A stretch of DNA of 64,000 bases from Dictyostelium discoideum (lineage: Eukaryota): positions 1-64,000 of the forward strand of contig CM000155.2 of assembly GCA_000004695.1 (NCBI GenBank), read 5' to 3'. Under the pieces are notes generated by a model, which was not told the DNA's origin, did no database searches, and worked only from the letters and a program-made list of their open reading frames with translations. Made by a program: the position numbers and the translations under genes. Positions 4,738 through 20,367 of the stretch are shown here, one piece after another. Numbering within the stretch: position 1 is the first letter of the stretch; every line of letters starts with the position of its first letter.

Positions 4738-5100
4738 TTCTTTGAAATAGTAATCTTGTCTTATATTATTGTATGTGATATCTAAAGCGTGATGACCACT
4801 ATATTTGGTATCGTGATATTCTCTAATTAGGGTACGAATAGTTTCTTTATCTATGATGATTAATTTTTTGAACCATCTTCACTAAGGTACCAGATATCAT
4901 TAATTTCTTCAATGCATAAATTTGGATTCTTTTTCATCTCTAATAGCCACTGAGAATTGATTTGTTCTTCCTTAATTTTATTTAAAAACGATTCATCCCA
5001 TTGGAAATTATCATATTTACGAGATAAGAAATCAGCTATACCATTCTTTTTACCACTTATTTGTCTTAATTCATAATCAACTTCTTTATTTATATTATCA
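4067..5100 (-). mobile_element. Ty3/gypsy-type (Skipper/DGLT-like) pol 3' fragment: RNase H-integrase junction, integrase zinc-finger and core remnant, C-terminal chromodomain. It is frameshifted and internally deleted.
   Basis: Minus-strand translation shows GIADFLSR (ADALSR-type motif), C-x2-C followed by LQSLEIPFEVWRDISIDFL (integrase core start), and WLSKGYPEPEWIKEVDTDCEELVREYW (chromodomain-like). There are multiple frame changes. Confidence 0.55.
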
Positions 5101-5412
5101 TATATATATATATATATATATTATGAAAAACATTTATTTATTTGAATTTCCCAAATATTTAAGATAATTTTTTAGAATGTTCTAGAACATTCGAAGAATA
5201 AAAAATTTTCGAAAGAAAAGTAAAAATTTCGAACCGGCTCAATGACGCGATCATTGTGTAAGGTCGAAAAACTGAAAAATTCCGAACCGACACTATGCAC
5301 AAAGTTGTGAAGGGTCGAAAACTCTTATTTTGCGAAATTTTTAAGAAAATAAAACGTATAAATAGTGGCACTAAAAACTAAAACAATTTGATTTATTTTA
5401 TTTGGGAATTCC
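5101..5412 (+). repeat. DIRS-like terminal repeat (copy B 5' end) with HSE-like motif at 5175-5195
   Basis: Reverse complement of 111-420 and 2394-2716. Confidence 0.8.
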
Positions 5413-5529: not shown

Positions 5530-6537
5530 ATGTCTACCACTGTTAATAATAATGAAGCCTCTAGTAGCAATACCTCTGCCTATAATAGCGCTGAATCCTT
5601 TGATTTAAGAATGAAGTCAATGGAGGATCAAATCAACAACCTTTCCTTAGCCTTTACAAGATTCATGAAAGAACCTATGTTCTCATCTAATACCAATTCA
5701 CGTAGCTAACCTTCTCATGATGACTCTGACACCGAGAATGAACAAAGTGAAGATGAATCAAGTAACAATGTCGATGTTCCAACCGATTATCAATTATCCG
5801 ATACTTTACTTGGTCAGTACAAACATATGGTAAACAATCAAGGTTTACTCGTCGAAGAAGAATGTATCCTCAAGAAAGATGAGATATCCGAATTGAATAA
5901 AGTATTCAACTTTCCATCTAACTTCCAAGTGAATGTCGCTCCATTCGGTACACCTGAAGGTATTACTGTATCATCCAACGTCAAGAACAATGATACTGAC
6001 TTGTTGATTGTCGAAAAGCGAATCAACGATAGCTTAAAACCTTTGCTTCTCATGTCAAGTATGTTATCATCTGATAGCTACAATGTCGATGTAGAACTTA
6101 TTAGTCATTTAACTCAGAGTGCAATCGTCTTAGCCGTTAATGCTCAAGCATCGCTTAGTCGTGTCCGTCGTAACAACATCGCTAAAGAAATCTATGGTTC
6201 TGAAGTACTCTTACCAATTAAGATCAATGATACACCAAAGATGTTTGATGAAACTGAAACTGAACGTGTAAGAAAGCTAGCCAAGTCAATCAGAAAGAAC
6301 AACGAAGCTAAACAATCATTGTTAAAATTGAATTATCATTCCAAGTCAAATGTCAAGAAATCAGTTAACTCAAGTGGTAATAACACTATAGGAAACAGTA
6401 GTAATAGTAAATCCAGTAGTGGGAGTAATGGACGATCTAACAACTTCAATGGATCACCAAGTAATGTTGCATCAGGTAGCAACAATATCAAGTCTGCAAA
6501 TGGTACCAACAACCGTTTTCAGAAGAACAAGAAGTAA
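5530..6537 (+). pseudogene. DIRS-like ORF1 (GAG-like) interrupted by an in-frame TAA at 5708-5710 (CAA in copy A)
   Basis: 5530 atg..MSTTVNNNEASSS, then 'cgt agc taa cct', versus copy A 'cgt agc caa cct'. The downstream ORF 5827..6537 is in frame. Confidence 0.7.
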
Positions 6538-7554
6538 ACTTACCAGTAGGTGGACGTCTGTTCCACCACAAACAAGTTTGGAAAGAATTGGGTCTTCCAA
6601 ACTTTTGTCAAGAGGTTGTAAATGGATTAATAGTCCATCTGCTTCCAAATTTCAAGCCGATGCTAAACCAATTCCGATTTCAATTCCAGAGGGTCCGAAA
6701 TCAGATTGCATCACAAAGGAAGTACAAGACTTGTTATTAGACGATGCTATCGAACAAGTACTTCCAAACCGTTATTCAAAGCGCGTTTTTTACTCCAACG
6801 TGTTTATGGTTCCAAAACCTGGAACGAATCTACATCGTCCAGTTCTAGATTTAAAAAGGTTAAACTCTTACATCAACAACCAATCATTCAAGATGGAAGG
6901 AATCAAGAATCTACCGTCAATGGTCAAACAAGGTTATTACATGGTAAAACTCGATATCAAGAAAGCCTACCTCCACGTGTTAGTAGATCCACAATACAGA
7001 GACTTATTCCGCTTCGTGTGGAAAGGTTCGCACTACCGTTGGAAAACAATGCCGTTCGGGTTATCGACAGCTCCTCGTATATTTACAATGCTGTTAAGAC
7101 CTGTACTTCGAATGTTGAGAGATATCAACGTATCCGTCATCGCTTACTTGGACGATCTATTAATCGTCGGTTCAACAAAAGAAGAATGTTTATCCAACCT
7201 CAAAAAGGCAATGGACTTACTTGTCAAACTAGGTTTCAAGTTAAACCTAGAAAAGAGTGTTCTCGAACCAACTCAATCAATTACGTTTCTCGGATTACAA
7301 ATCGATTCGGTATCAATGAAGCTTCTTGTTCCCAAAGAAAAGAAGAAAGTGTCATCAAAGAAATAAGAAACTTTTTAAAACTAGATTGTTGCTCCCCAAG
7401 AAAGCTTGCTGGTTTAAAAGGAAAGTTAATCGCACTGAAAGATGCAGTCATCCCATTCAGACTTTACACTCGTCGAACAAACAAGTTTCACTCTCAGTGT
7501 CTGAATCTAGCCAATGGAGATTGGGATCAATCATTTAAAAATTTAAATTATTAA
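6419..7554 (+). CDS. DIRS-like reverse transcriptase, overlapping the ORF1 end. RT domains lie in frame 6419..7366 and a thumb-like continuation in frame 6706..7554.
   Basis: YLDDLLIVG and the same motifs as copy A. The 3' ~190 bp (IRNFLKLDCCSPRKLAGLKGKL...) is absent from copy A. Confidence 0.7.
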
Positions 7555-7572: not shown

Positions 7573-7873
7573 TATATATATATATATATATTATGAATAA
7601 CATTTATTTTTTTGAATTTCCCAAATATTTAAGATAATTTTTTAGAATGTTTAAGAACATTCGAAGAATAAAAAATTTTCGAAAGAAAAGTAAAAATTTC
7701 GAACCGGCACAATGACGCGTAAGGTCGAAAAACATAAAAATTCCGAACCGACACAATGCACAAAGTTGTGAAGGGTCGAAAACTCTTATTTTTTTGAGTT
7801 TTGCGAAATTTTTAAGAATATAAAAACGTATAAATAGTGGCACTAAAAACTAAAACAATTTGATTTATGGAAT
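7573..7873 (+). repeat. DIRS-like terminal repeat (copy B 3' end), same orientation as 5101-5412. The HSE is mutated to 'gaatgtttaagaacattcgaa' at 7645-7665.
   Basis: Sequence identity to the other three repeat copies. Confidence 0.8.
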
Positions 7874-7975
7874 TCCGACTAAGGGCGGGTGGGATGGGAT
7901 TAATATATCACAGCGGCGAAAATCAACACTTTAAAGCACCTTTAAATCCAAGTACTCTTTTTAATATATATTAAT

Positions 7976-8815: not shown

Positions 8816-8980
8816 CAATTGATTTTGCAGTTGTTGTTGTACCTGTTATTGTTTTATTGTTTTATGGTTGCACCTGTTGTGGTTTTTATTATTGTTGCTA
8901 AAATTGTTGGTGTGTGTTGTAGTTGTTTGTTCTGTGTATATATTCATATGAATTCTATATTTTTAGCAAATTTACCTATA

Positions 8981-9660
8981 GATGGTCACTTTTTGAGTTA
9001 CAAATATTATGAAGAGTCAATTTTTTATTATGAAATTTGTTCAGTTGTAAAATTATTAATTGAAAAAAAAATTTTTTAGAATATTTAGATTTCTCAAAAG
9101 ACTATGAGCAAGGTATTTATAAAAATTATAAATCTGGAGAACAATTCAAAAAAATAAAAAATTCAATTTCAGATAAATTTATTTTATTAAGAATATTTAG
9201 TGACGGAATGAGTCATCAAGGTAGATCAGATTATACTATAATGGTGGATTTTGAAAATTATAATGGTCCATTTTTTAAAAATAACAAAATTGTTTTATTT
9301 ATTGTTCCAAAAGAATGGTTTCACAATATACATCAAACAATTAAAAAATTATTTTCAGCGCAATTTAATAATAAATTAATAATTAAAGATAATAATGGAA
9401 ATGATTATGAAATTATACCATATGGATTAACAATGGATATACCAGAATTTAGATCATCTTGTAGGATTAACCATTATAATTGCAATGAGTTCTCATGTCA
9501 TACATGTGATAAACTAAGAGGTGTCGATTATTTATTAAAAGAAGGAAATTATAGAAATCAAAAAGACATTATTGACTTTCACAATTCAAAACTAAATAAA
9601 CAAGATTTTTTAAATCCTCAAAATAAAATTTTAAACACAGCGAAGAAAAAACCACTTTAA
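8981..9660 (+). pseudogene. 5'-truncated, frameshifted paralog of the zinc-finger gene at 14428-15898 (C-terminal ~225 codons). The stop codon lies inside the TIR at 9636.
   Basis: The region DGHFLSYKYYEESIFYYEI..KKIF / EYLDFSKDYEQGIYKNYKSGEQFKKIKN..DYTIMVDFENY..GLTMDIPEFRSSCRINHYNCNEFSCHTCDK aligns to the 446-aa protein. There is a one-base frame change in an A10 run at about 9079. The final codons 'aac aca gcg aag aaa aaa cca ctt taa' are TIR sequence. Confidence 0.6.
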
Positions 9661-10391
9661 AGCAAATTTAAATTTAATTTAAAGCGAATTTAAAGTCCTG
9701 AATTAAAGCAATTTTTAAGGTAATTTTAAAGGTAATTTTTAAGGTTACTTTAAAATCACCTTAAAAATTACCTTTAAAATTACCTTTAAAATTACCTTTT
9801 TAATCGCTTTAAAAGCGAGGTCCTGAGTTCGAAGCCGTTATTTAACGGATAAAATTTTTAAAATTTTTTTTTAATTTTTCAAAAATTACCAAAAGGGATT
9901 CGATCCCCCGACCCTCTATCAAAGGATAGTCTCATCAACCATTACACCATTTGATTGCTTTGATGAAAATTTAAATATGATAGAATATTTTATCCCCATT
10001 TTTTTGATCTAAAATTAGATCTTTTTAATTAAAAACCTTAAATTTATACTTAAAGGAAATTTAAATTCACTTTAAATCTACTTTAAATCTACTTTAAATC
10101 CTATTTAAAATTAATTTAAAATAAATTTTAAAGGTATTTTTAAATATCTTAAAAATTATCTTAAAAATTACCTTAAAAATCACCTTTAAAATCACCTTTA
10201 AAATCACCTTTAAAATTGCTTAAAAATTTATTTTCAAGCAAATTTTAAAGGCATTTTTAAATATCTTAAAAATTACCTTAAAAATTACCTTAAAAATGAA
10301 TTTTTTAAAAGCGGCTTTAAATTCAATTTAAATCCAATTTAAATCAACTTTCCTTTAAATTTGCTTTAAAGGTGCATTTTTCTTTGCTGTG
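9636..10391 (+). mobile_element. MITE-like non-autonomous TIR element (756 bp) with 29-bp terminal inverted repeats and subterminal direct-repeat arrays
   Basis: The 5' end is 'cacagcgaagaaaaaaccactttaaagc' and the 3' end is 'gctttaaaggtgcatttttctttgctgtg'. The arrays are (ggtaattttaaa)n near the 5' end and (cacctttaaaat)n and (ctactttaaat)n near the 3' end. A second full copy is at 11946-12859. Confidence 0.7.
9889..9965 (-). other. Degenerate tRNA-Gln(UUG)-like module inside the MITE (anticodon-loop-like CTTTGAT, B-box-like gggggatcgaatccc). There is a second B-box-like 'gagttcgaagcc' at 9826-9837 on the plus strand.
   Basis: Minus strand reads 'gcaatcaaatggtgtaatggttgatgagactatcctttgatagagggtcgggggatcgaatccc'. 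It resembles the tRNA-Gln D-arm and anticodon arm, but the stems do not pair fully. Confidence 0.3.
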
Positions 10392-10474
10392 AAATTAGAA
10401 ACAGAAAAAAAAATGAAAAAAATCGGCATTAGAGATATGACAGATCTTGGGTAGAAAATTTAAAAATAAATTAT

Positions 10475-10879
10475 TTGTACTTACAACCTGATATTTTACA
10501 CAACATATTATTGGGTATTGTACAATGGGTTTTAAATTATATTTTCAAAAAATATAAGGATCAAATTACAATTTTTATAAAAAAATTAAAAGAAGCTAAA
10601 ATCATTCCAGATCATTTACCACCATCAGAATCTTTATTTGGTGTAAAAACAAGAAAAGGTAGAGAGAATAGAAGCATATTATATTATATTTTATTTTTTA
10701 CTAAATCAAATGTATCAAATGATGATTTCTTATTATTAGAAGAAATGTTTCAGATTACTTTTTTATTATATCAAGATTCTTTCGACGAAGATGATTTGGA
10801 TAAAATAAATTATTTAGTTAAAAATAAGTATACTTTATATGTATATTTAAAAAGTATACTTTATAATAATACTTATTAA
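10475..10879 (+). CDS. Orphan 134-aa ORF inside the TIR element interior. Possibly a fragment of an element-encoded protein.
   Basis: ORF MYLQPDILHNILLGIVQWVLNYIFKKYKDQ...; no recognisable domain. It is preceded by a short disrupted ORF (MKKIGIRDMTDLG*). Confidence 0.2.
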   Translation: MYLQPDILHNILLGIVQWVLNYIFKKYKDQITIFIKKLKEAKIIPDHLPPSESLFGVKTRKGRENRSILYYILFFTKSNVSNDDFLLLEEMFQITFLLYQDSFDEDDLDKINYLVKNKYTLYVYLKSILYNNTY

Positions 10880-10950
10880 GTACACTTTATAATAGTACTA
10901 TTTACATTCCTACTTTAAAGATGCTTTTAAGTATTTTTTTCGCCCCTGTG

Positions 10951-11945
10951 ATATATATATATTTAATATAAAATATAATTTAATAATTTAAATTTTTAAT
11001 TTATATTATCATATATATATATATATTATGAAATTTGGACGACAGTATTTAAGAAACCACCAGATTTTTCACCAATGATTCTTTTATCGTAGAAGGTATC
11101 TACAGTATCATTTGATTTCCAACGACCCATCTTCTTGACAACGTGGAACGGAACGTTATTGGACAACAGCAGAGAAGCCATAGCGGAACGGGTAGAGTGA
11201 GATTTGAACTTGCAATATCAATACCTGACTTTGAGAGTGTTGATAGTACAATTGAGTTAATATCATTAACTTGGAGCGGTTCACCCTCATTCTTAATAAA
11301 GACAAAGTCACCCGAATGGGGCTTTCTTCTTCCTTTAGAGGCTCTAAGGTATGTTGCAAGGTGGCGAACAGGGCATACTTGAGAGTTAGTATCATCTAAC
11401 GATGTTAATTCTAAGATTGAAACAACACCACTTCTTTGTTCTTTAGCATTAATAACTGGACCCTTGATTGAGTCAGGAGTAATAATGAGACCTTTGAACG
11501 ACCACTTCACCAAGTCTGATGATCTTGCTAAACCAAACATTTTACAGAGAACAAGTGTCTTGTTTAATAGCGCAGTGTATGTGTACTTGGGGATGACTTT
11601 GATAGTAGATAAGTGCTTGAATACTTGATTTGCATCCCATATCTCTTTATACTTTGCAGATGAAGGGCGCAACTTGTGAATACCAGTCATAATTTTTGTG
11701 ATGAATGGATCATTAACAATATCAGTTTGATTCCTAAGGAGTAACAACTGATTCAACATAGAACGATGACCGTTAATTGTGGAGAAGGCTAACGGAGGTT
11801 TGTGCTTGAACAGATGTGTAAGATAATCCATGACAACAACTAAGGTAATGTTTGCTGGATTCAAAGAGTTCAAAGTACAAAAATTGCGGAATCTTGTATA
11901 ACTGGAGCTATATACTTTGAGAGTTGAAGGTTCCCAAGACTTCAT
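10951..11945 (-). mobile_element. DIRS-1-like 3' fragment: tyrosine-recombinase ORF remnant plus an internal-complementary-region-like segment. It lacks a terminal repeat.
   Basis: 10955-11000 matches the ICR-like segment of copies A and B (395-433). 11001-11028 resembles the terminal-repeat tip. The minus ORF 11100..11945 has LVLCKMFGLARSSDL (recombinase box-I-like R) and then changes frame. Confidence 0.55.
11100..11945 (-). pseudogene. DIRS-like tyrosine recombinase (ORF2/YR) remnant, frameshifted near its 3' end
   Basis: 281-aa ORF with GLARSSDL. A downstream alternative frame (11156..11395) carries the ...YALFATLQHTL... and ...SLYPFRYGFSA... segments. Confidence 0.45.
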
Positions 11946-12859
11946 TACACAGCAAAGAAAAAACCACCTTTAAATTCGCTTTAAATTAAATTTAAATTTG
12001 CTTTAAAGTCCTGAATTAAAGCAATTTTAAAGGTAATTTTAAAGGTAATTTTAAAGGTAATTTTTAAGGTTACTTTAAAATCACCTTAAAAATTACCTTT
12101 AAAATTACCTGTACAATTACCTTTTTAATGGCTTGAAAAGCNNNNNNNNNNNNNNNNNNNNNNNNNNNNNNNNNNNNNNNNNNNNNNNNNNNNNNNNNNN
12201 NNNNNNNNNNNNNNNNNNNNNNNNNNNNNNNNNNNNNNNNNATTACCTTTAAAATTACCTTTTTAATGGCTTTAAAAGCGAGGTCCTGGGTTCGAAGCCG
12301 TTATTTAACGGGTAAATTTTTTAAAATTTTTTTTTTTAATTTTTCAAAAAAATTACCAAAAGGGATTCGATCCCCCGACCCTCTATCAAAGGGTAGTCTC
12401 ATCAACCATTACACCATTTGATTGCTTTGATGAAAAATTTAAAAATGATAGAATATTTTATCCCCATTTTTTTGTTCTAAAATTAGATCTTTTTTATTAA
12501 AAACCTTAAATTTATGTTTAAAGGAAATTTAAATTCACTTTAAATCTACTTTAAATCTACTTTAAATCCTATTTAAAATTAATTTAAAATAAATTTTAAA
12601 GGTATTTTTAAATATCTTAAAAATTATCTTAAAAATTACCTTAAAAATCACCTTTAAAATCACCTTTAAAATCACCTTTAAAATTGCTTAAAAATTTATT
12701 TTAAAGCAAATTTTAAAGGCATTTTTAAATATCTTAAAAATTACCTTAAAAATTACCTTAAAAATGAATTTTTTAAACGCGGCTTTAAATTCAATTTAAA
12801 TCCAATTTAAATCAACTTTTCTTTAAATTTGCTTTAAAGGTGCATTTTTCTTTGCTGTG
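11946..12859 (+). mobile_element. Second MITE-like copy of the CACAGC-TIR element. It contains a 99-nt assembly gap at 12142-12240.
   Basis: It starts 'cacagcaaagaaaaaaccacctttaaattcgc' and ends 'gctttaaaggtgcatttttctttgctgtg'. The interior is collinear with 9636-10391, including the tRNA-like module at about 12350-12430. Confidence 0.7.
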
Positions 12860-12978
12860 TAACAGCTCAGCTGTTTTTGTATTTGTTGTACGAGCGAAGG
12901 ACATTACATGAGATTGGAAAGTTGAATAATCCCCAGTTTCCAACGTTGTTGAATCTGGATTGGTATCGACTCTACTGA

Positions 12979-14060
12979 CACAGCAAAGAAAAATGCACCT
13001 TTAAAGCCAATTTCAAGCAAATACAATTTAAATTTGCTTTAAATTGGCTTTAAATTTGCTTTTTAAAAAGGTAATTTTAAAGATATTTTTAAGGTCATTT
13101 AAAATTACATTAAAAATGACCTTTTAAATTTATTATAAAGCGGTTTTTAAATAATGTTTTAATCACTTTATAATAAATTTAAAAAAGTTATTTTTAATGT
13201 AATTTAAAATTACTTATCAATCCTTTTTTAAGCTTTTATTAATTATATTTTTTAAAATACATTTTAAATGCATTTTAAATACATTTCAAATCAATTTTTA
13301 CACTATTTATTTCAAATTTATTAAAAAAAAAAAAATAAAAATAAGAAAATAAAAAAAAAAAAAAAAATTAAGAAAATTAAAAAAAAAAAAAACTAAAAAG
13401 ATAACCAAATTAATTTTAATTCTTTATTTATTTGTTTCAGTGGCAATTGAATTCTATTATTATTATTTTTATTAATTAATAATAAAAAAGTGTTTCAGTT
13501 GCCTTGGGTTTTATATTATTTTATTTTAAATTTTACTTCTCATTTCAAAAAGCGAAAAATATCAAAAAAAAAAAAAAAAATTTAATTATTTGTTTTGCAT
13601 ATTTATATTATAAGTATAAACATACATATAAAAAAAGATTTTTTATTTTTTATTTTTTATAATTAATAAACAATTAACGAGTGCACATGTATATTATTGC
13701 ATTAGTGTAGTTTTACAATAAATTGGGCAGATTTTATAGTTTTTTTTTTTAATATTTTAAAAAGAAAAAGGTATAGACAGGGTCATAGGTTCCCCGTCAT
13801 TTTTTGAAAATGGGGTATATCCCTCTAAATATAAAATTTTAAGTACTAAATCATATATCTACTTGCTATAATGCTAAAATTTGAATTAAATGAAAAAAAA
13901 AAAAAAAAAAACGTAAAAACTCGAGGAAAAAAAAAAAAAAAATATTATTTTTAATTTCCAGCCAGCAAACAAAATGAATTTAAATAACATATCATGCATT
14001 AATTGCAGAGAAAAATTAAAGAATTTTAAAAATATTATTATTCATTATATTATGCATAAA
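12979..14060 (+). repeat. Left long inverted arm (includes duplicated gene start ATG at 13975 and upstream region)
   Basis: Reverse-complement identity to 15813-16894 as read by eye over several stretches. Confidence 0.65.
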
Positions 14061-14464
14061 TTTTATCCCCATTTTTTTGTTCTAAAATTAGATCTTTTTT
14101 ATTAAAAACCTTTAATTTATGTTTAAAGGAAATTTAAATTCACTTTAAATCTACTTTAAATCTACTTTAAATCCTATTTAAAATTAATTTAAAATAATTT
14201 TTAAAGGTATTTTTAAATATCTTTAAAATAAATTTTTAAGCAATTTTAAAGGTGATTTTAAAGGTGATTTTAAAGGTGATTTTTAAGGTAATTTTTAAGA
14301 TAATTTTTAAGCAAATTTTAAAGGCATTTTTAAATATCTTAAAAATTACCTTAAAAATTACCTTAAAAATGAATTTTTTAAACGCGGCTTTAAATTCAAT
14401 TTAAATCCAATTTAAATCAACTTTTCTTTAAATTTGCTTTAAAGGTGCATTTTTCTTTGCTGTG
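14061..14464 (+). mobile_element. MITE 3' half (collinear with 9975-10391) ending in TIR 14436-14464. It abuts the zinc-finger gene 3' end.
   Basis: Sequence 'ttttatccccatttttttgttctaaaattagatc...gctttaaaggtgcatttttctttgctgtg'. Confidence 0.65.
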
Positions 14465-15898
14465 AAGGGTTCGACCCACCCTCTGTCCACACCTTTGATA
14501 CCAATATCTTTTGCTTTTTTTTCCCATACTTTTTTTAATTCTATATCAGCATTTAGTTCAGCATAATTTGGTTTGGTGGAGTGAAAATTTGTAATATCTT
14601 CTTGTTTTCTTAATGCAAATAAATAAACCATCTCTTGGTTTGTCACATGTGTGACATGCATATTCATTTGAATTATGTCCATTAAGTTTACACGATGCTC
14701 TAAATTCTGGAATATCCATTGTCAGTCCAAACGGTACAACATCTATTTGTTCATTTTCAATAATTAAATTAAAGCCATTACCAATAAAAGATGAAAACAA
14801 TGCCCTAATTGTTTGATGAAAATTAAGTAACCAATCATTTGGTACTACAAATAATAATAATTTATTATTTTTAAATTCATTTCCAATATAATTTTCTATA
14901 TCCAGCATTATAGTATAATCTTTCTTGTTTTGACACTGCATACTATCAGTGAATATTCTAAGTAAAACAATTTTATTTTTATTTTTATTTTTTAAATCTT
15001 TAAATTGTTGACCACTTTTATAATTTGTATAAATTCCAGTTTCAAAATCTGTATCAAAATCTATTCTTTCAAAAAATTGCTTTTTATTTAATAAAGTTTC
15101 TAATACTTTTTTAATTTCAAAATAAAAAATTGAGTGATCATAATTTTTATTTATAAATGTTTCTCCTTTTATTTGAAAATCTTCCATAAATAATTTATCC
15201 ATATATTGAGGTGTGTATCTTATTTGATTTAAATTGGTTTTATTTTTGTCAATAAAACTTTTAAATTTTTCAAGTAGCTTTAAACTTATTGAGTTTTCAA
15301 TTCCCAACATTAAAAATTCAATTTCAGTTTCATTTAATTTTTTTTTTGATTTTTCATTATCTAAATTATTATTTAGATTATTATTTATTGGTTCGTTTTG
15401 AGCATTTTCATTTTCATTATTTTCATTATTTTCATTATTAATGTTTGCTTCATTTTCATCTATTCTAATTTCATTGTTTTCATCTTCACTATTTACCAAC
15501 CCAATTATATCATGATTTTCTTCATTATCAATTGTTTGATTATTTTCATTATTTTCATTATTTTCTTGATAAAAAATTTCATCTTGGTTTTGGTTACATA
15601 AATGTTTACATGGGTCATCTGGATCATTTGTTGGATATTTTATTTTTTCACCAGTAATATCCATTAATTTTTTATAAAAGCTATCTCTTTTTTGATTATT
15701 TGTAATAATTTTATTTTGTTCATTTTTACATTTTTTGGTGTTTAAATGTCCATTTACATCATAAAATTGTTTATAAGAACGGTAACATGCAAGACAAAAT
15801 GGACATATATTTTTATGCATAATATAATGAATAATAATATTTTTAAAATTCTTTAATTTTTCTCTGCAATTAATGCATGATATGTTATTTAAATTCAT
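14428..15898 (-). CDS. Zinc-finger protein of the TIR element, about 490 aa when reconstructed. The N-terminus has C2H2/BED-like fingers (C-x2-C-x12-H-x3-H, then C-x2-C..H-x5-C), then an acidic Asn/Glu-rich linker, then a conserved C-terminal domain ending ..CHTCDK. There is a +1 frameshift near 14640. The last 11 codons and the stop are encoded by TIR and subterminal sequence.
   Basis: ORF 14558..15898 (446 aa) plus alternative frame 14428..14682. The frame switch is supported by alignment to paralog 8981-9660 (VDYLLKEGNYRNQKDIIDFHNSKLNKQDF versus VYLFALRKQEDITNFHSTKPNY). The terminal codons are 'aca gca aag aaa aat gca cct tta aag caa att taa'. Confidence 0.55.
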
Positions 15899-16894
15899 TT
15901 TGTTTGCTGGCTGGAAATTAAAAATAATATTTTTTTTTTTTTTTTTCCTCGAGTTTTTACGTTTTTTTTTTTTTTTTTTTTCATTTTATTCAAATTTTAG
16001 CATTATAGCAAGTAGATATATGATTTAGTACTTAGAATTTTATATTTAGAGGGATATACCCCATTTTCAAAAAATGACGGGGAACCTATGACCCTGTCTA
16101 TACCTTTTTCTTTTTAAAATATTAAAAAAAAAAACTATAAAATCTGCCCATTTTATTGCAAAACTACACTAATGCAATAATATACCTGTGCACTCGTTAA
16201 TTGTTTATTAATTATAAAAAATAAAAAATAAAAAATCTTTTTTTATATGTATGTTTATACTTATAATATAAATATGCAAAACAAATAATTAAATTTTTTT
16301 TTTTTTTTTTGATATTTTTCGCTTTTTGAAATGAGAAGTAAAATTTAAAATAAAATAATATAAAACCCAAGGCAACTGAAACACTTTTTTATTATTAATT
16401 AATAAAAATAATAATAATAGAATTCAATTGCCACTGAAACAAATAAATAAAGAATTAAAATTAATTTGGTTATCTTTTTAGTTTTTTTTTTTTTTAATTT
16501 TCTTAATTTTTTTTTTTTTTTTTATTTTCTTATTTTTATTTTTTTTTTTTTAATAAATTTGAAATAAATAGTGTAAAAATTGATTTGAAATGTATTTAAA
16601 ATGCATTTAAAATGTATTTTAAAAAATATAATTAATAAAAGCTTAAAAAAGGATTGATAAGTAATTTTAAATTACATTAAAAATAACTTTTTTAAATTTA
16701 TTATAAAGTGATTAAAACATTATTTAAAAACCGCTTTATAATAAATTTAAAAGGTCATTTTTAATGTAATTTAAATGACCTTAAAAATATCTTTAAAATT
16801 AACTTTTTAAAAAGCAAATTTAAAGCCAATTTAAAGCAAATTTAAATTGTATTTGCTTGAAATTGGCTTTAAAGGTGCATTTTTCTTTGCTGTG
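15813..16894 (-). repeat. Right long inverted arm (contains the gene 5' end, promoter region and terminal TIR)
   Basis: Reverse complement of 12979-14060. Confidence 0.65.
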
Positions 16895-17141
16895 TACCTT
16901 AAAAATCACCTTTAAAATCACCTTTAAAATCACCTTTAAAATCACCTTTAAAATCACCTTTAAAATTGCTTAAAAATTTATTTTAAAGCAAATTTTAAAG
17001 GCATTTTTAAATATCTTAAAAATTACCTTAAAAATTACCTTAAAAATGAATTTTTTAAACGCGGCTTTAAATTCAATTTAAATCCAATTTAAATCAACTT
17101 TGCTTTAAATTTGCTTTAAAGGTGCATTTTTCTTTGCTGTG
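16895..17141 (+). mobile_element. MITE 3' fragment (collinear with about 10170-10391) ending in TIR
   Basis: The (cacctttaaaat)5 array, then '...gctttaaaggtgcatttttctttgctgtg' ending at 17141. Confidence 0.6.
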
Positions 17142-17290
17142 GTAATTTTAAAGGTAATTTTTAAGGTGATTTTAAAGTAACCTTAAAAATTACCTTTAAA
17201 ATTACCTTAAAAATTGCTTTAATTCAGGACTTTAAATTCGCTTTAAATTAAATTTAAATTTGCTTTAAAGGTGGATTTTTCTTCGCTGTG
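17142..17290 (-). mobile_element. Inverted MITE 5' fragment ending in TIR (17262-17290). It abuts a gene-3'-end-like ORF.
   Basis: Reverse complement of 9636-9790. The adjacent minus ORF 17265..17468 ends ...NQPTQRRKIHL*, with its last 8 codons in the TIR. Confidence 0.55.
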
Positions 17291-17938
17291 TTGGTTGATT
17301 AATTTCGTCCAATATCTTTTGATCAATCCTTTTATTGAATGTTTTTAGAAGTTCGTGGTGAGTGTCTTCGTTGCATTCTCTCTTCTGGTACAAGTTCTCG
17401 TATTTTGAAAAAGATCGAGTTATCCCGGAAAAGATCAATCTTTTCGCGAAAAATTTTTCACTGGCCAAATTATTTTTTTTTTAAAATTTTTTTTTTATTA
17501 ACAATTAAAATAAATAAAATAAAAGAATGATTTACAAAAAAATCAGAAATACTGGGGCTCAAATAAAGGATTTATTTTTTATATGTAATTTTTTTTTTTT
17601 TTGAAGTTCCTTTTTTTTCGAAGTTCATTTTTTTATATATTTTCTTTATTTCTCTTAACTACATACTAAATTTAATTCTACGATAGGTCTTAACAAATAT
17701 TGTTTAAAACAAAAATTTTATATAATATTAAATAATGCATTTTATTAAAAAAAAAAAAAAAAAAAAAATATGAAAAGTGAAAATTTTTTCAAAAAAAAAA
17801 AACTTTTTTCGAAACAACTCAGCTTATTCCCGGATAACTCGATCTTTTTCAAAATAACTTTATTTATTCAGAATTAATTCAATTATTCACTGATAGGTCC
17901 ATTATTATTTAAAAGTTTTGTTTTAAATCGTGCATTCC

Positions 17939-18002
<64 letters not shown>

Positions 18003-18205
18003 CAGAAAAGAACCTTTTGGGGAATAAATGAGTTATTTATTTTTTTAAAAAAGATTTAGTTTTTTGTTAAAGAAAAGAATTGTTTCAAAAAAAGGTTTTT
18101 TTTTTTTTTTTTTTTTCTTCATTTCCCACATATGTTTTTTTTATTATAAAATGCATTTTAGTGAATAAATTTATTTTTTTATTATTATAAAAGGTTCATT
18201 TTTGG

Positions 18206-18238
<33 letters not shown>

Positions 18239-18450
18239 AAAGCACGATTTAAAACAAAACTTTTAAACAATAATATTAAACAATATTTGTTAAGACCTAT
18301 TTTAGAATTAAATTTAGTATAATTGTAGAAATAAAGAAAAAAAAATGAACTTCAAATAAAAAAAAAGAACTTCAAAAAAATCACATATGAACCTTGTATT
18401 TCTGATTTTTTTTTTTTTTGTAAACTATACTTTTTATTTTATTTTATTAT
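17291..18450. repeat. Large imperfect palindrome (inverted duplication) centred on a 60-nt poly(T) at 17941-18000
   Basis: 17400-17428 is the reverse complement of 17822-17850. 17683-17708 is the reverse complement of 18276-18300. 17720-17750 is mirrored at 18120-18160. Confidence 0.6.
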
Positions 18451-18720
18451 TCCTCAAAAATATTTTTTTATTTAATTTTTTTTTGAATTGGATAACTCAA
18501 TTTATATTTTTTTATTTAGTATGTAATTAAAAAAAAAATAAAAAAATAAAATTAAAAAATGAAATAAAATTAATACCTATTCAGCTTTAAACAAGCTAGT
18601 GTTCTAAAAATTTACCATTATTATTTACCGGTAAATAATAATGAAAACGAATTAATTTATTTAATTTATTTAAATTTATTTAAATTTATTTAAATTATTT
18701 AAATTTATTTAAATTTATTT

Positions 18721-18766
<46 letters not shown>

Positions 18767-18891
18767 AAGGTAAAAATTTTAAATAAAATTTTATATTTTT
18801 TTTTTTATTATTTTTTATCATTCATTTTTTTATTTTTAATTTACACATATACATATAAATATACAATTAAATTTTTAATTTACTTTCAAAA

Positions 18892-19057
18892 ATGGATGAC
18901 ACAAAAGCTGAAATTTCGTTTGACGTTATTTATGATGATTTACCATTACCAATTAGTTTACCATTGAACGCCACTGTATTGGATTTAAAAAATCAGCTCG
19001 AGCAATATACTGGGATACCTTCAAACCATCAGCTTATATTAAATATACCTGATAATG
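18892..19057 (+). CDS. FAF1-like UBX-domain protein, exon 1 (ubiquitin-like N-terminus)
   Basis: MDDTKAEISFDVIYDDLPLPISLPLNATVLDLKNQLEQYTGIPSNHQLILNIPDNG, then GTGGGT and an AT-rich intron. Confidence 0.5.
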
Positions 19058-19255: not shown

Positions 19256-19405
19256 CTAAAGATAATAGTGTATTAGCCTCAATAGATTTAAAGAATATTG
19301 AAATGATTCAAATACCACCAGAACAACAAAGTTCTGAAAAGCCACAAGATGTAAATACAATGATTGAAAGAATAGCTGTTGATGATGATAATGATGATGA
19401 TAGTA

Positions 19406-19466
<61 letters not shown>

Positions 19467-20297
19467 TAATAGTAGTAATATTGAAAATAGTATAAATAAT
19501 GTTGAAGATGATAATGATGATGATGATGATGTTTTTATGCAAGGATCGAATGGTTATGAAAGAATAGGTAGTAATTTACAACATAACCTACAACACACAA
19601 CACATACATCCACCACAACAAATAATGGTATCACAACAACAACCACCACCACCACTATAACAACACCCAATGGTGTACAACAACAACAGCAACAAACAAC
19701 CTATTCAACATACTCAAATACAGGCTCACCATTGTTGGTGGGAAATAACCCTACAGCAGGATTAACAACTGCATCTGGTTATGTTCCATCTCCTTTTGCA
19801 ACTAATTTCTTCCCAGAAACTGACCAATTGTCAGCACAAAATTTAATAGATTTTTTGGACCAACTTTATTATCCAACCTTCTCTAATGATATATTTCAAC
19901 AGTATTCTGTTGTTGTACCAGATTCATTTAGTGGAAGTTTCAAAGATGCCCTTAACTTTGCAAAGAAAAGTGGCAAGTTGGTTTTAACTTATTTACACAG
20001 TGATAACCAAATCTCTCTCTCCTTTATTTTGGATATACTAAGGAGTGAGGAGGTTTTAGAATTCATTAAAGAAAACTTTGTATTTTGGGTAGCAAAAATT
20101 ACACCAGAGGCTGAATCTTTCCTATTTTCATTGGTACAATTTGAAAGCTATCCTATCGTTGTCACTCTTTCAAATTTAGGTTCACCAGAGATATTGGAAG
20201 TATCTCAAGGTTGTACAGAAAAAGAAGTATTTTTCCAAAATATGGTAAATCATTTGACTTCAAACCAAGTAGATTTAGATAGAGTTAGATTAGAAGA
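19256..20297 (+). CDS. FAF1-like UBX protein, exon 2 (N/D-rich linker, UAS/thioredoxin-like domain). The 3' splice site is ambiguous (19256 or 19262).
   Basis: ...KLVLTYLHSDNQISLSFILDILRSEEVLEFIKENFVFWVAKITPEAESFLFSLVQFESYPIVVTL (UAS-like). Exon ends ga|GTGAGT. Confidence 0.55.
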
Positions 20298-20367
20298 GTG
20301 AGTAATTTTTAAAAAAAAAAAAAAAAAAAAAAGAGTCCAAATTTACTAATGTATTATTATTAAATAG

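Follow-up and report, generated by a model that had tools for sequence, protein, structure and literature searches.

How does a gene come to stand between two inverted copies of its own beginning? The question is raised by a stretch of the Dictyostelium discoideum genome (positions 1 to 64,000 of contig CM000155.2, assembly GCA_000004695.1; the whole 64,000-nucleotide stretch is referred to below as the window), in which a transposase-like gene with zinc fingers is flanked, at 12979-16894, by two inverted arms that each contain a terminal repeat, the sequence upstream of the gene and its first codons. We propose that this structure is probably a by-product of nested transposition and one deletion in a transposon-rich, DIRS-containing region, the arms being the 5' ends of two independently inserted copies, X' on the left and Y on the right, of a cut-and-paste DNA transposon that is most likely DDT (Dictyostelium DNA transposon). 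One complete copy (S1) and three pieces (S2 to S4) of a short non-autonomous element of the same family, called S, lie between and around the arms. The locus was compared with family-containing loci numbered L001 to L009, of which L003 (GCA_054883475.1) is the same locus in an independent assembly.

A scan of the window for repeats presents the arms as three ungapped blocks, which a gapped alignment merges into a single pair (12979-14060 and the reverse complement of 15812-16894), with 6 substitutions and 4 single-base insertions or deletions over ~1082 bp (~99.1% identity) and a spacing of 1.75 kb. The original prediction, made from the letters of the window, had described inverted copies at these positions, and both the scan and the gapped alignment bear it out; since substitutions and indels separate the arms, they are near-identical and not, as they had appeared, perfect. 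The outer end of each arm is the exact 28-mer CACAGCAAAGAAAAATGCACCTTTAAAG, which occurs 8 times in the window and 0 times in 100 shuffles, so that inverted terminal repeats do bound the whole at 12979 and 16894, as had been thought. Inward of the 28-bp repeat follow ~1 kb of upstream sequence and codons 1-29 of the zinc-finger open reading frame (ORF), from ATG to AAA (MNLNNISCINCREKLKNFKNIIIHYIMHK), with which each arm closes. The prediction was right about the 29 codons, which occupy 87 nt (13974-14060 in the left arm) and not the 86 bp it had given.

The right arm belongs to Y, which we identify as the 5' half of an autonomous copy because it is 98.7% identical to L004 7005-9445 and 97.7% identical to element positions 23-2413 of a 4602-bp copy in L006. 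The left arm, for its part, shares 98.5% identity with the L004 copy at its 5' end. The coding sequence of Y is frameshifted near codon 424 (about 14610-14625) and ends after ...GVDRGWVEP at 14465, exactly against the tip of S4. This 404-bp piece is ~90% identical to the S copies of L004 (a 759-bp element) and, ungapped, 86% identical to 12455-12859 within S1. It had been described as the 3' half of a MITE (miniature inverted-repeat transposable element) with a terminal repeat of its own: the piece and its terminal repeat are real, and the label is wrong because the piece matches that end of S which has its 5'-type tip in common with the autonomous element. An S-like element must thus have transposed into the Y coding sequence, since S4 is not the 3' end of an autonomous copy; for the same reason we rejected 12979-14464 as an internal-deletion derivative joining the two ends of an autonomous element.

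The other end of S4 is of a different nature. At 14061 it is no transposon end, and it is fused there to codon 29 of X'; the joint reads ATGCATAA up to 14060 and ATTTTATCCCC from 14061 onwards (junction-spanning string ATTATGCATAAATTTTATCCCC), with no more than 1-2 nt of shared sequence, and is an illegitimate joining. Transposon tips lie at 12979, 14464, 16894, 17141 and 17290. Their partner halves are missing from S2, S3, S4 and Y, as is the remainder of X' beyond codon 29. On the left, the DIRS-like retroelement fragment is the host sequence that received both S1 and the left arm, and it is contiguous with 12860-12978 in the uninterrupted copy at L002 3434-3880; the further continuation of the retroelement (L002 3881 onward) is absent from the window. 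We also tried the left flank as a continuation of the Y coding sequence, and looked for the retroelement resuming on the far side of the composite; neither is the case. S1 is ~98% identical to three 759-760-bp copies in L004, and S2 is ~91% identical to S ends there. The apparent length of S1, 912 bp, includes a spurious 100-N gap (12142-12241), the flanking 38 bp of which are mutually repeated (92% identical) and through which L003 runs without interruption, and therefore S1 is 774 bp long. The pieces are collected in Table 1.

Table 1. Pieces of the composite locus and its immediate flanks (positions in the window)
Feature	Position	Strand	Identified by
Tyrosine-recombinase retroelement fragment (DIRS-like)	10951..11947	-	Pfam Phage_int_SAM_5; 96.5% identical to L006 15860-16855
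S1, complete short element S	11948..12859	+	terminal repeats; TA/TA flanks; true length 774 bp
Retroelement continuation, 119 bp, left flank of the composite	12860..12978	-	83-85% identical to L002 3762-3880 and L001 1826-1935
X' (left arm), 5' end of an autonomous-type copy	12979..14060	+	terminal repeat, 11-12-bp subterminal repeats, upstream region, codons 1-29, ATG 13974
S4, terminal piece of an S-like element, 404 bp	14061..14464	-	exact 28-bp terminal repeat 14437-14464, inverted orientation
Y, 5' half of an autonomous copy	14465-16894	-	identity to L004 and L006 copies
Transposase pseudogene body of Y (AX4 gene DDB_G0291257), codons 30 to ~477	14465..15811	-	ORFs; P0033; hhalign motif positions
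Right arm, 5' end of copy Y	15812..16894	-	terminal repeat 16867-16894, upstream region, codons 1-29, ATG 15898
S3, 247-bp terminal piece of S, site of Y insertion	16895..17141	+	97% identical to 12613-12859; terminal repeat 17114-17141
S2, 149-bp opposite-type S end, site of S3 insertion	17142..17290	-	96% complementary to 12030-12109; terminal repeat 17263-17290

The family to which these pieces belong is a cut-and-paste DNA transposon with autonomous copies of ~4.1-4.6 kb, tips of the form CACAG..., 11-12-bp subterminal repeats and 2-bp target duplications. The ORF has 29 protein homologues, all from Dictyostelium, the best of which (P0001) is 100% identical, while intact relatives encode 715-816 aa; near-identical copies of the family occur on other contigs. 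A complete copy of the autonomous type, 4123 bp long with an internal deletion, is found at L008 5004-9126 between GG and GG. About 23 of the 28 terminal bases match between its ends, its subterminal repeats are degenerate (~68% similar), and it has no long arms, which means that long arms are not a trait of the family. A second candidate for an autonomous copy is the 4602-bp element at L006 9032-13633. The short element S is non-autonomous and non-coding, measures 747-774 bp, has the exact 28-bp tip in common with one end of the autonomous element and is present in ten complete copies in the DNA examined. All 12 complete copies are flanked by matching dinucleotides (TA, TA, GC, TT, TT, TT, TA, AA, TA, TA, TA and GG), a match that would arise by chance with a probability of ~0.1 per copy in this AT-rich DNA. 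Empty sites were found for two of them, namely for S1 in L006 (CATTAACAGCTC) and, in L007, for the S copy at 9637-10391.

Certain details of the individual copies may be recorded here. At L006 9032-15512 two copies are convergent, the 4602-bp copy ending at 13633 against the truncated coding sequence (~codon 618) of the inverted one; the 5' tip of this 4602-bp copy bears a 3'-type terminal repeat, without 27 bp. A second ORF (MNSSANFITPNGNVSG...) begins ~130 bp past the transposase stop in autonomous copies (L001 8646 onward, L002 ~8625, L005 ~12857, L008 7622-8596), and such a two-gene layout would parallel that of CACTA elements, with their TnpA and TnpD. The S element contains two oppositely oriented tRNA-like stretches (L004 10490-10670, corresponding to 12278-12440 in the window), including GTTCGAATCC, which resembles an RNA polymerase III B-box. 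Despite these stretches, ARAGORN reported no tRNA gene in 9000-19000; they could nevertheless matter, as the TRE retrotransposons of this genome target tRNA genes. Near one end of S the 12-bp subterminal repeats form a near-perfect 76-nt palindrome (L004 10690-10766; 12016-12124 and 17141-17220 in the window), for which Rfam gave only sub-threshold matches to models of miRNA hairpins, e.g., mir-548 with 42.6 bits against a cutoff of 90.

Among the explanations that have to be weighed against nested insertion, one is that the structure does not exist and that the assembler wrongly inverted or duplicated a hairpin-forming or repeated region. The spurious gap lies only 740 bp away and demonstrates that the reference assembly is imperfect here. 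However, L003 is collinear with window 12242-17967 at 99.7% identity, with the same order of pieces, the same arms and the same 14060/14061 joint, and at alignment columns 93, 717, 744 and 752 it has the same substitutions by which the two arms differ. Artefactual duplicates would be identical to each other and would not be reproduced in a second assembly, and we therefore rejected the assembly error raised by the original prediction as practically ruled out. It is also highly improbable that either the 1486-bp unit 12979-14464 or the 3916-bp whole is a mobile non-autonomous or foldback-type element that moves as a unit with two identical 5'-type tips. The tips of the smaller unit are perfect inverted 28-bp repeats, its 160-bp subterminal regions are ~76% complementary, the same holds for 12979/16894, and judging by these ends alone either could in principle serve as a transposase substrate. 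Yet the flanks read GA/AA for 12979-14464 and GA/TA for 12979-16894, with no 2-bp duplication in either case as opposed to 12 out of 12 complete copies with one, the complete autonomous-type copy has no long arms, and neither the joint nor the long-arm structure, other copies of which the prediction had suggested looking for, recurs in the eight other loci (L001, L002 and L004-L009; ~125 kb of family-rich DNA). The locus does recall foldback elements and 'double Ds' pairs, in that its long inverted arms end in transposon tips and one copy lies reversed within or against another. But foldback elements have arms made up of tandem subrepeats and transpose as a whole, with target duplications, whereas the arms here are unique promoter and coding sequence without a duplication; and a double Ds is one intact element inserted in another, unlike the present locus with its inner joint that is not a transposon end. 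It is because of this joint that a rearrangement must have shaped the structure, and to this extent the original prediction, in naming a rearrangement, was correct; what the absent target duplication, the armless complete copy and the uniqueness of the joint speak against is a single composite or foldback element.

A local origin of the arms deserves closer attention. The left arm might have been copied from the 5' end of Y through a foldback or template-switch error of replication or through alternative transposition, with the result that the gene would have its own promoter and start next to it in inverted form; such rearrangements are known to be produced by cut-and-paste families, Ac/Ds among them. 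The arms are ~99% identical and only 1.75 kb apart, and in the window's own sequence X' and Y differ by 6 substitutions, as compared with 8-9 between X' and the L004 copy and 10-11 between Y and the L004 copy. The first 1.1 kb of six young copies were aligned and substitutions were counted over 951 ungapped columns, the ranges reflecting the choice of assembly. X' differs from the L008 copy, which lies on another chromosome, by 3-5 substitutions, from Y by 4-8 and from the L004 copy by 6-8. Four substitutions private to Y are found in both assemblies, and X' has none of them; no derived site is common to X' and Y in both assemblies among the six young copies. Thus, we see no sign that one arm was copied from the other, and the arms are alike because the subfamily is young and homogeneous. 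In addition, the left arm has its outer tip in a retroelement unrelated to Y, and its inner joint leads to an S fragment, not to Y, so that further events besides the duplication would be needed. In view of X' lacking the Y-private sites and of its closeness to the L008 copy, we do not favour the notion, contained in the original prediction, of a gene bracketed by a duplication of its own promoter and start, and consider a local inverted duplication unlikely.

We return to nested insertion followed by deletion, for which we infer the following course of events. An autonomous copy, Y, would have inserted into a short element, S3, that was itself inside another short copy, S2; an S-like element, S4, would then have transposed into Y, behind codon 477 of its coding sequence. 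Nearby, the DIRS-like retroelement would have received a second autonomous copy, X', in the opposite orientation. One deletion extending from codon 30 of X' to the interior of S4 may then have removed the rest of X', the 3' half of Y and those halves of S2, S3 and S4 that are now missing, leaving two 5' ends that face each other. Four ordinary insertions and one deletion would in this way account for all the missing halves being absent together. A comparable layout is found in L006, where one copy ends with its tip at the point at which the coding sequence of an inverted copy is truncated.

Several considerations weigh against this reconstruction. The order of events is not uniquely reconstructable, and nothing independent testifies to the proposed deletion, the lost halves of S2, S3, S4 and Y being simply absent. 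The arms are slightly closer to each other than is an average dispersed pair (6 versus 8-10 substitutions in the window's own sequence), for which reason an old local duplication that predates the Y-private changes is conceivable. Finally, the elements are presumably DDT, but this name rests on exclusion and on the family as reportedly described by Glockner et al. 2001.

What kind of transposon is it? Direct Pfam scans of the window ORF and of four full-length relatives gave no transposase match. A profile of 13 family members (A1) was searched against 1.84 billion representative proteins and recovered distant relatives with E-values of 1e-5 to 1e-3, two of which carry Pfam Transposase_21 (PF02992, the TNP2 family of CACTA elements) above the cutoff. 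Alignment of A1 with the profile of the relatives (A2) by hhalign gave 99.4% probability over 403 columns and brought the family's LRIF[ST]D, PDILHNILLG and NFHLLLHY...WGAPK..SAERFEAQ into register with the relatives' corresponding motifs, across D, D and E; the A2 relatives were recruited by the same profile, and their Pfam annotation is independent of it. With a single protein, P0085, A1 aligned at 94% probability. An AlphaFold2 model built from the 13-sequence alignment had a mean pLDDT of 38 and was unusable. The tips begin with CACAGCAAAG... (CAC...) and are followed by 11-12-bp tandem subterminal repeats. Mirage elements make 2-bp target duplications. On the combined strength of profile homology, CAC tips, subterminal arrays and 2-bp duplications, we place the family in the CACTA/Mirage/Chapaev (CMC) superfamily, and its predicted transposase, judging from the profile alignments, is a distant CMC-type DDE enzyme that bears zinc fingers. 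Members of the superfamily resemble the present family in all four respects, the transposase aligning with Transposase_21 proteins across D, D and E; they differ from it in that the homology is visible only at the profile level and that the N-terminal C2H2-type fingers and a low-complexity Asn/Glu tract are lineage-specific to the family.

The probable assignment to DDT was reached by exclusion and from genomic context. Enzymes of the integrase type are encoded by the Tdd-4/5 elements, and thug is rarer by a factor of ~9 (PMC5633606); in L004 and L008, integrase-type enzymes are present as ORFs of their own. The autonomous DDT-A/B and the short DDT-S resemble the family studied here in belonging to the same organism, in being DNA transposons with terminal inverted repeats, in having an ORF without a direct Pfam match and in their high copy number, and DDT clusters resemble the present locus in being accompanied by DIRS-like and Skipper-like retroelements and broken up by insertions of their own kind. 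The X'-S4-Y joint, by contrast, is specific to this locus. In agreement with the history proposed above, DDT elements account for ~20% of the centromere regions of D. discoideum, and they are described there as strongly fragmented through later insertions and as clustered with elements of their own type (PMC2665215). The locus consists of nested remnants of a familiar type of transposon within a familiar type of cluster and is ordinary for this genome. Literature searches returned no superfamily assignment of the family and nothing on the gene identifiers, and no DDT primers were found in PMC4559204.

In the neighbourhood, several copies of a 300-700-bp repeat, at 101-415, 2414-2729, 5089-5396 and 7576-7908, together with a reverse-transcriptase ORF at 6419-7366 (Pfam RVT_1), make the first 12 kb of the window a retroelement cluster. 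A second transposase subfamily is present at 8948-10825 (+), 95-98% identical to P0037 and only ~43% identical to Y; this copy is split by the complete S at 9637-10391, with the AA duplication, and it is its unfilled site that is seen in L007. The recombinase ORF of the DIRS-like fragment (11026-11945, minus strand) is frameshifted (11100-11945 plus 11026-11181) and comprises 281 aa and a 51-aa tail with a GRWKS...Y motif; homologous recombinase sequence is also found beside DDT copies in L001 and L006. Ordinary genes start at ~19 kb, e.g., with a FAF1-domain ORF at 19303-20301.

Gene annotation has treated the remnants as genes. P0033, the product of DDB_G0291257, is 100% encoded in the window, the frameshifted C-terminus included, which marks the window as the AX4 reference; a look-up of its exact sequence returned no record. 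The AX4 model of this gene gains an upstream exon drawn from within an arm. In the second assembly, the NCBI gene model ACTFIT_012295 (P0001, 517 aa; L003 8001-11083, window 12815-15898, minus strand) takes the whole left arm and the S piece for an intron and then extends through the retroelement fragment as far as the tip of S1, an artefact of annotation. Both annotated genes of the locus, DDB_G0291257 and ACTFIT_012295, are transposon remnants. By its sequence the remnant is predicted to encode no active transposase, because Y is frameshifted and is without the second catalytic D and the E, as located by the hhalign alignment.

A locus that makes no enzyme may still act through RNA, whichever way it originated. 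If the arms were transcribed convergently, or if read-through transcripts folded the two 5' ends back on each other, the resulting double-stranded RNA (dsRNA) might enter RNA interference and turn it against active copies of the family. With its inverted duplication, which takes in the terminal repeat, the upstream region and the transposase start, the locus matches in architecture Mu killer, the maize locus that silences the MuDR family through a hairpin RNA; Mu killer is an inverted duplication of the 5' part of MuDR and likewise has two inverted copies of the terminal repeat and the transposase start. In D. discoideum itself, the inverted repeats of DIRS-1 are convergent promoters that yield a Dicer substrate (PMC4482531), and cloning has recovered small RNAs that derive from DNA transposons, at low frequency (PMC2175303). 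On the other hand, transcription of this locus, small RNAs from it and the promoter activity of the arms, which the original prediction had raised, are all putative, and according to a 2017 review (PMC5633606) none of these DNA transposons has had its expression or its cellular control examined in detail. The parallel with Mu killer also has its limits: Mu killer is a direct product of duplication, it is transcribed and its action was demonstrated genetically, whereas the arms here look like independent copies known from sequence alone, and a 1.75-kb spacer with most of a pseudogene separates them. We regard a silencing by-product of this kind as rather improbable, and are more doubtful still that the head-to-head 5' ends could be a natural source of dsRNA that keeps the DDT family silent in D. 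discoideum.

The structure itself matters little, since DDT copies that are nested, truncated and inserted into one another have been described as the norm for the transposon clusters of D. discoideum. For the family, the present analysis supplies an assignment to a superfamily, with a putative CMC-type DDE enzyme and 2-bp target duplications, that according to the accessible literature it lacks. Should the locus make silencing RNAs, it would be of interest for the control of transposons in a compact haploid genome, and would be for the Amoebozoa what Mu killer is for maize, offering a first point of entry into the way these DNA transposons are controlled.

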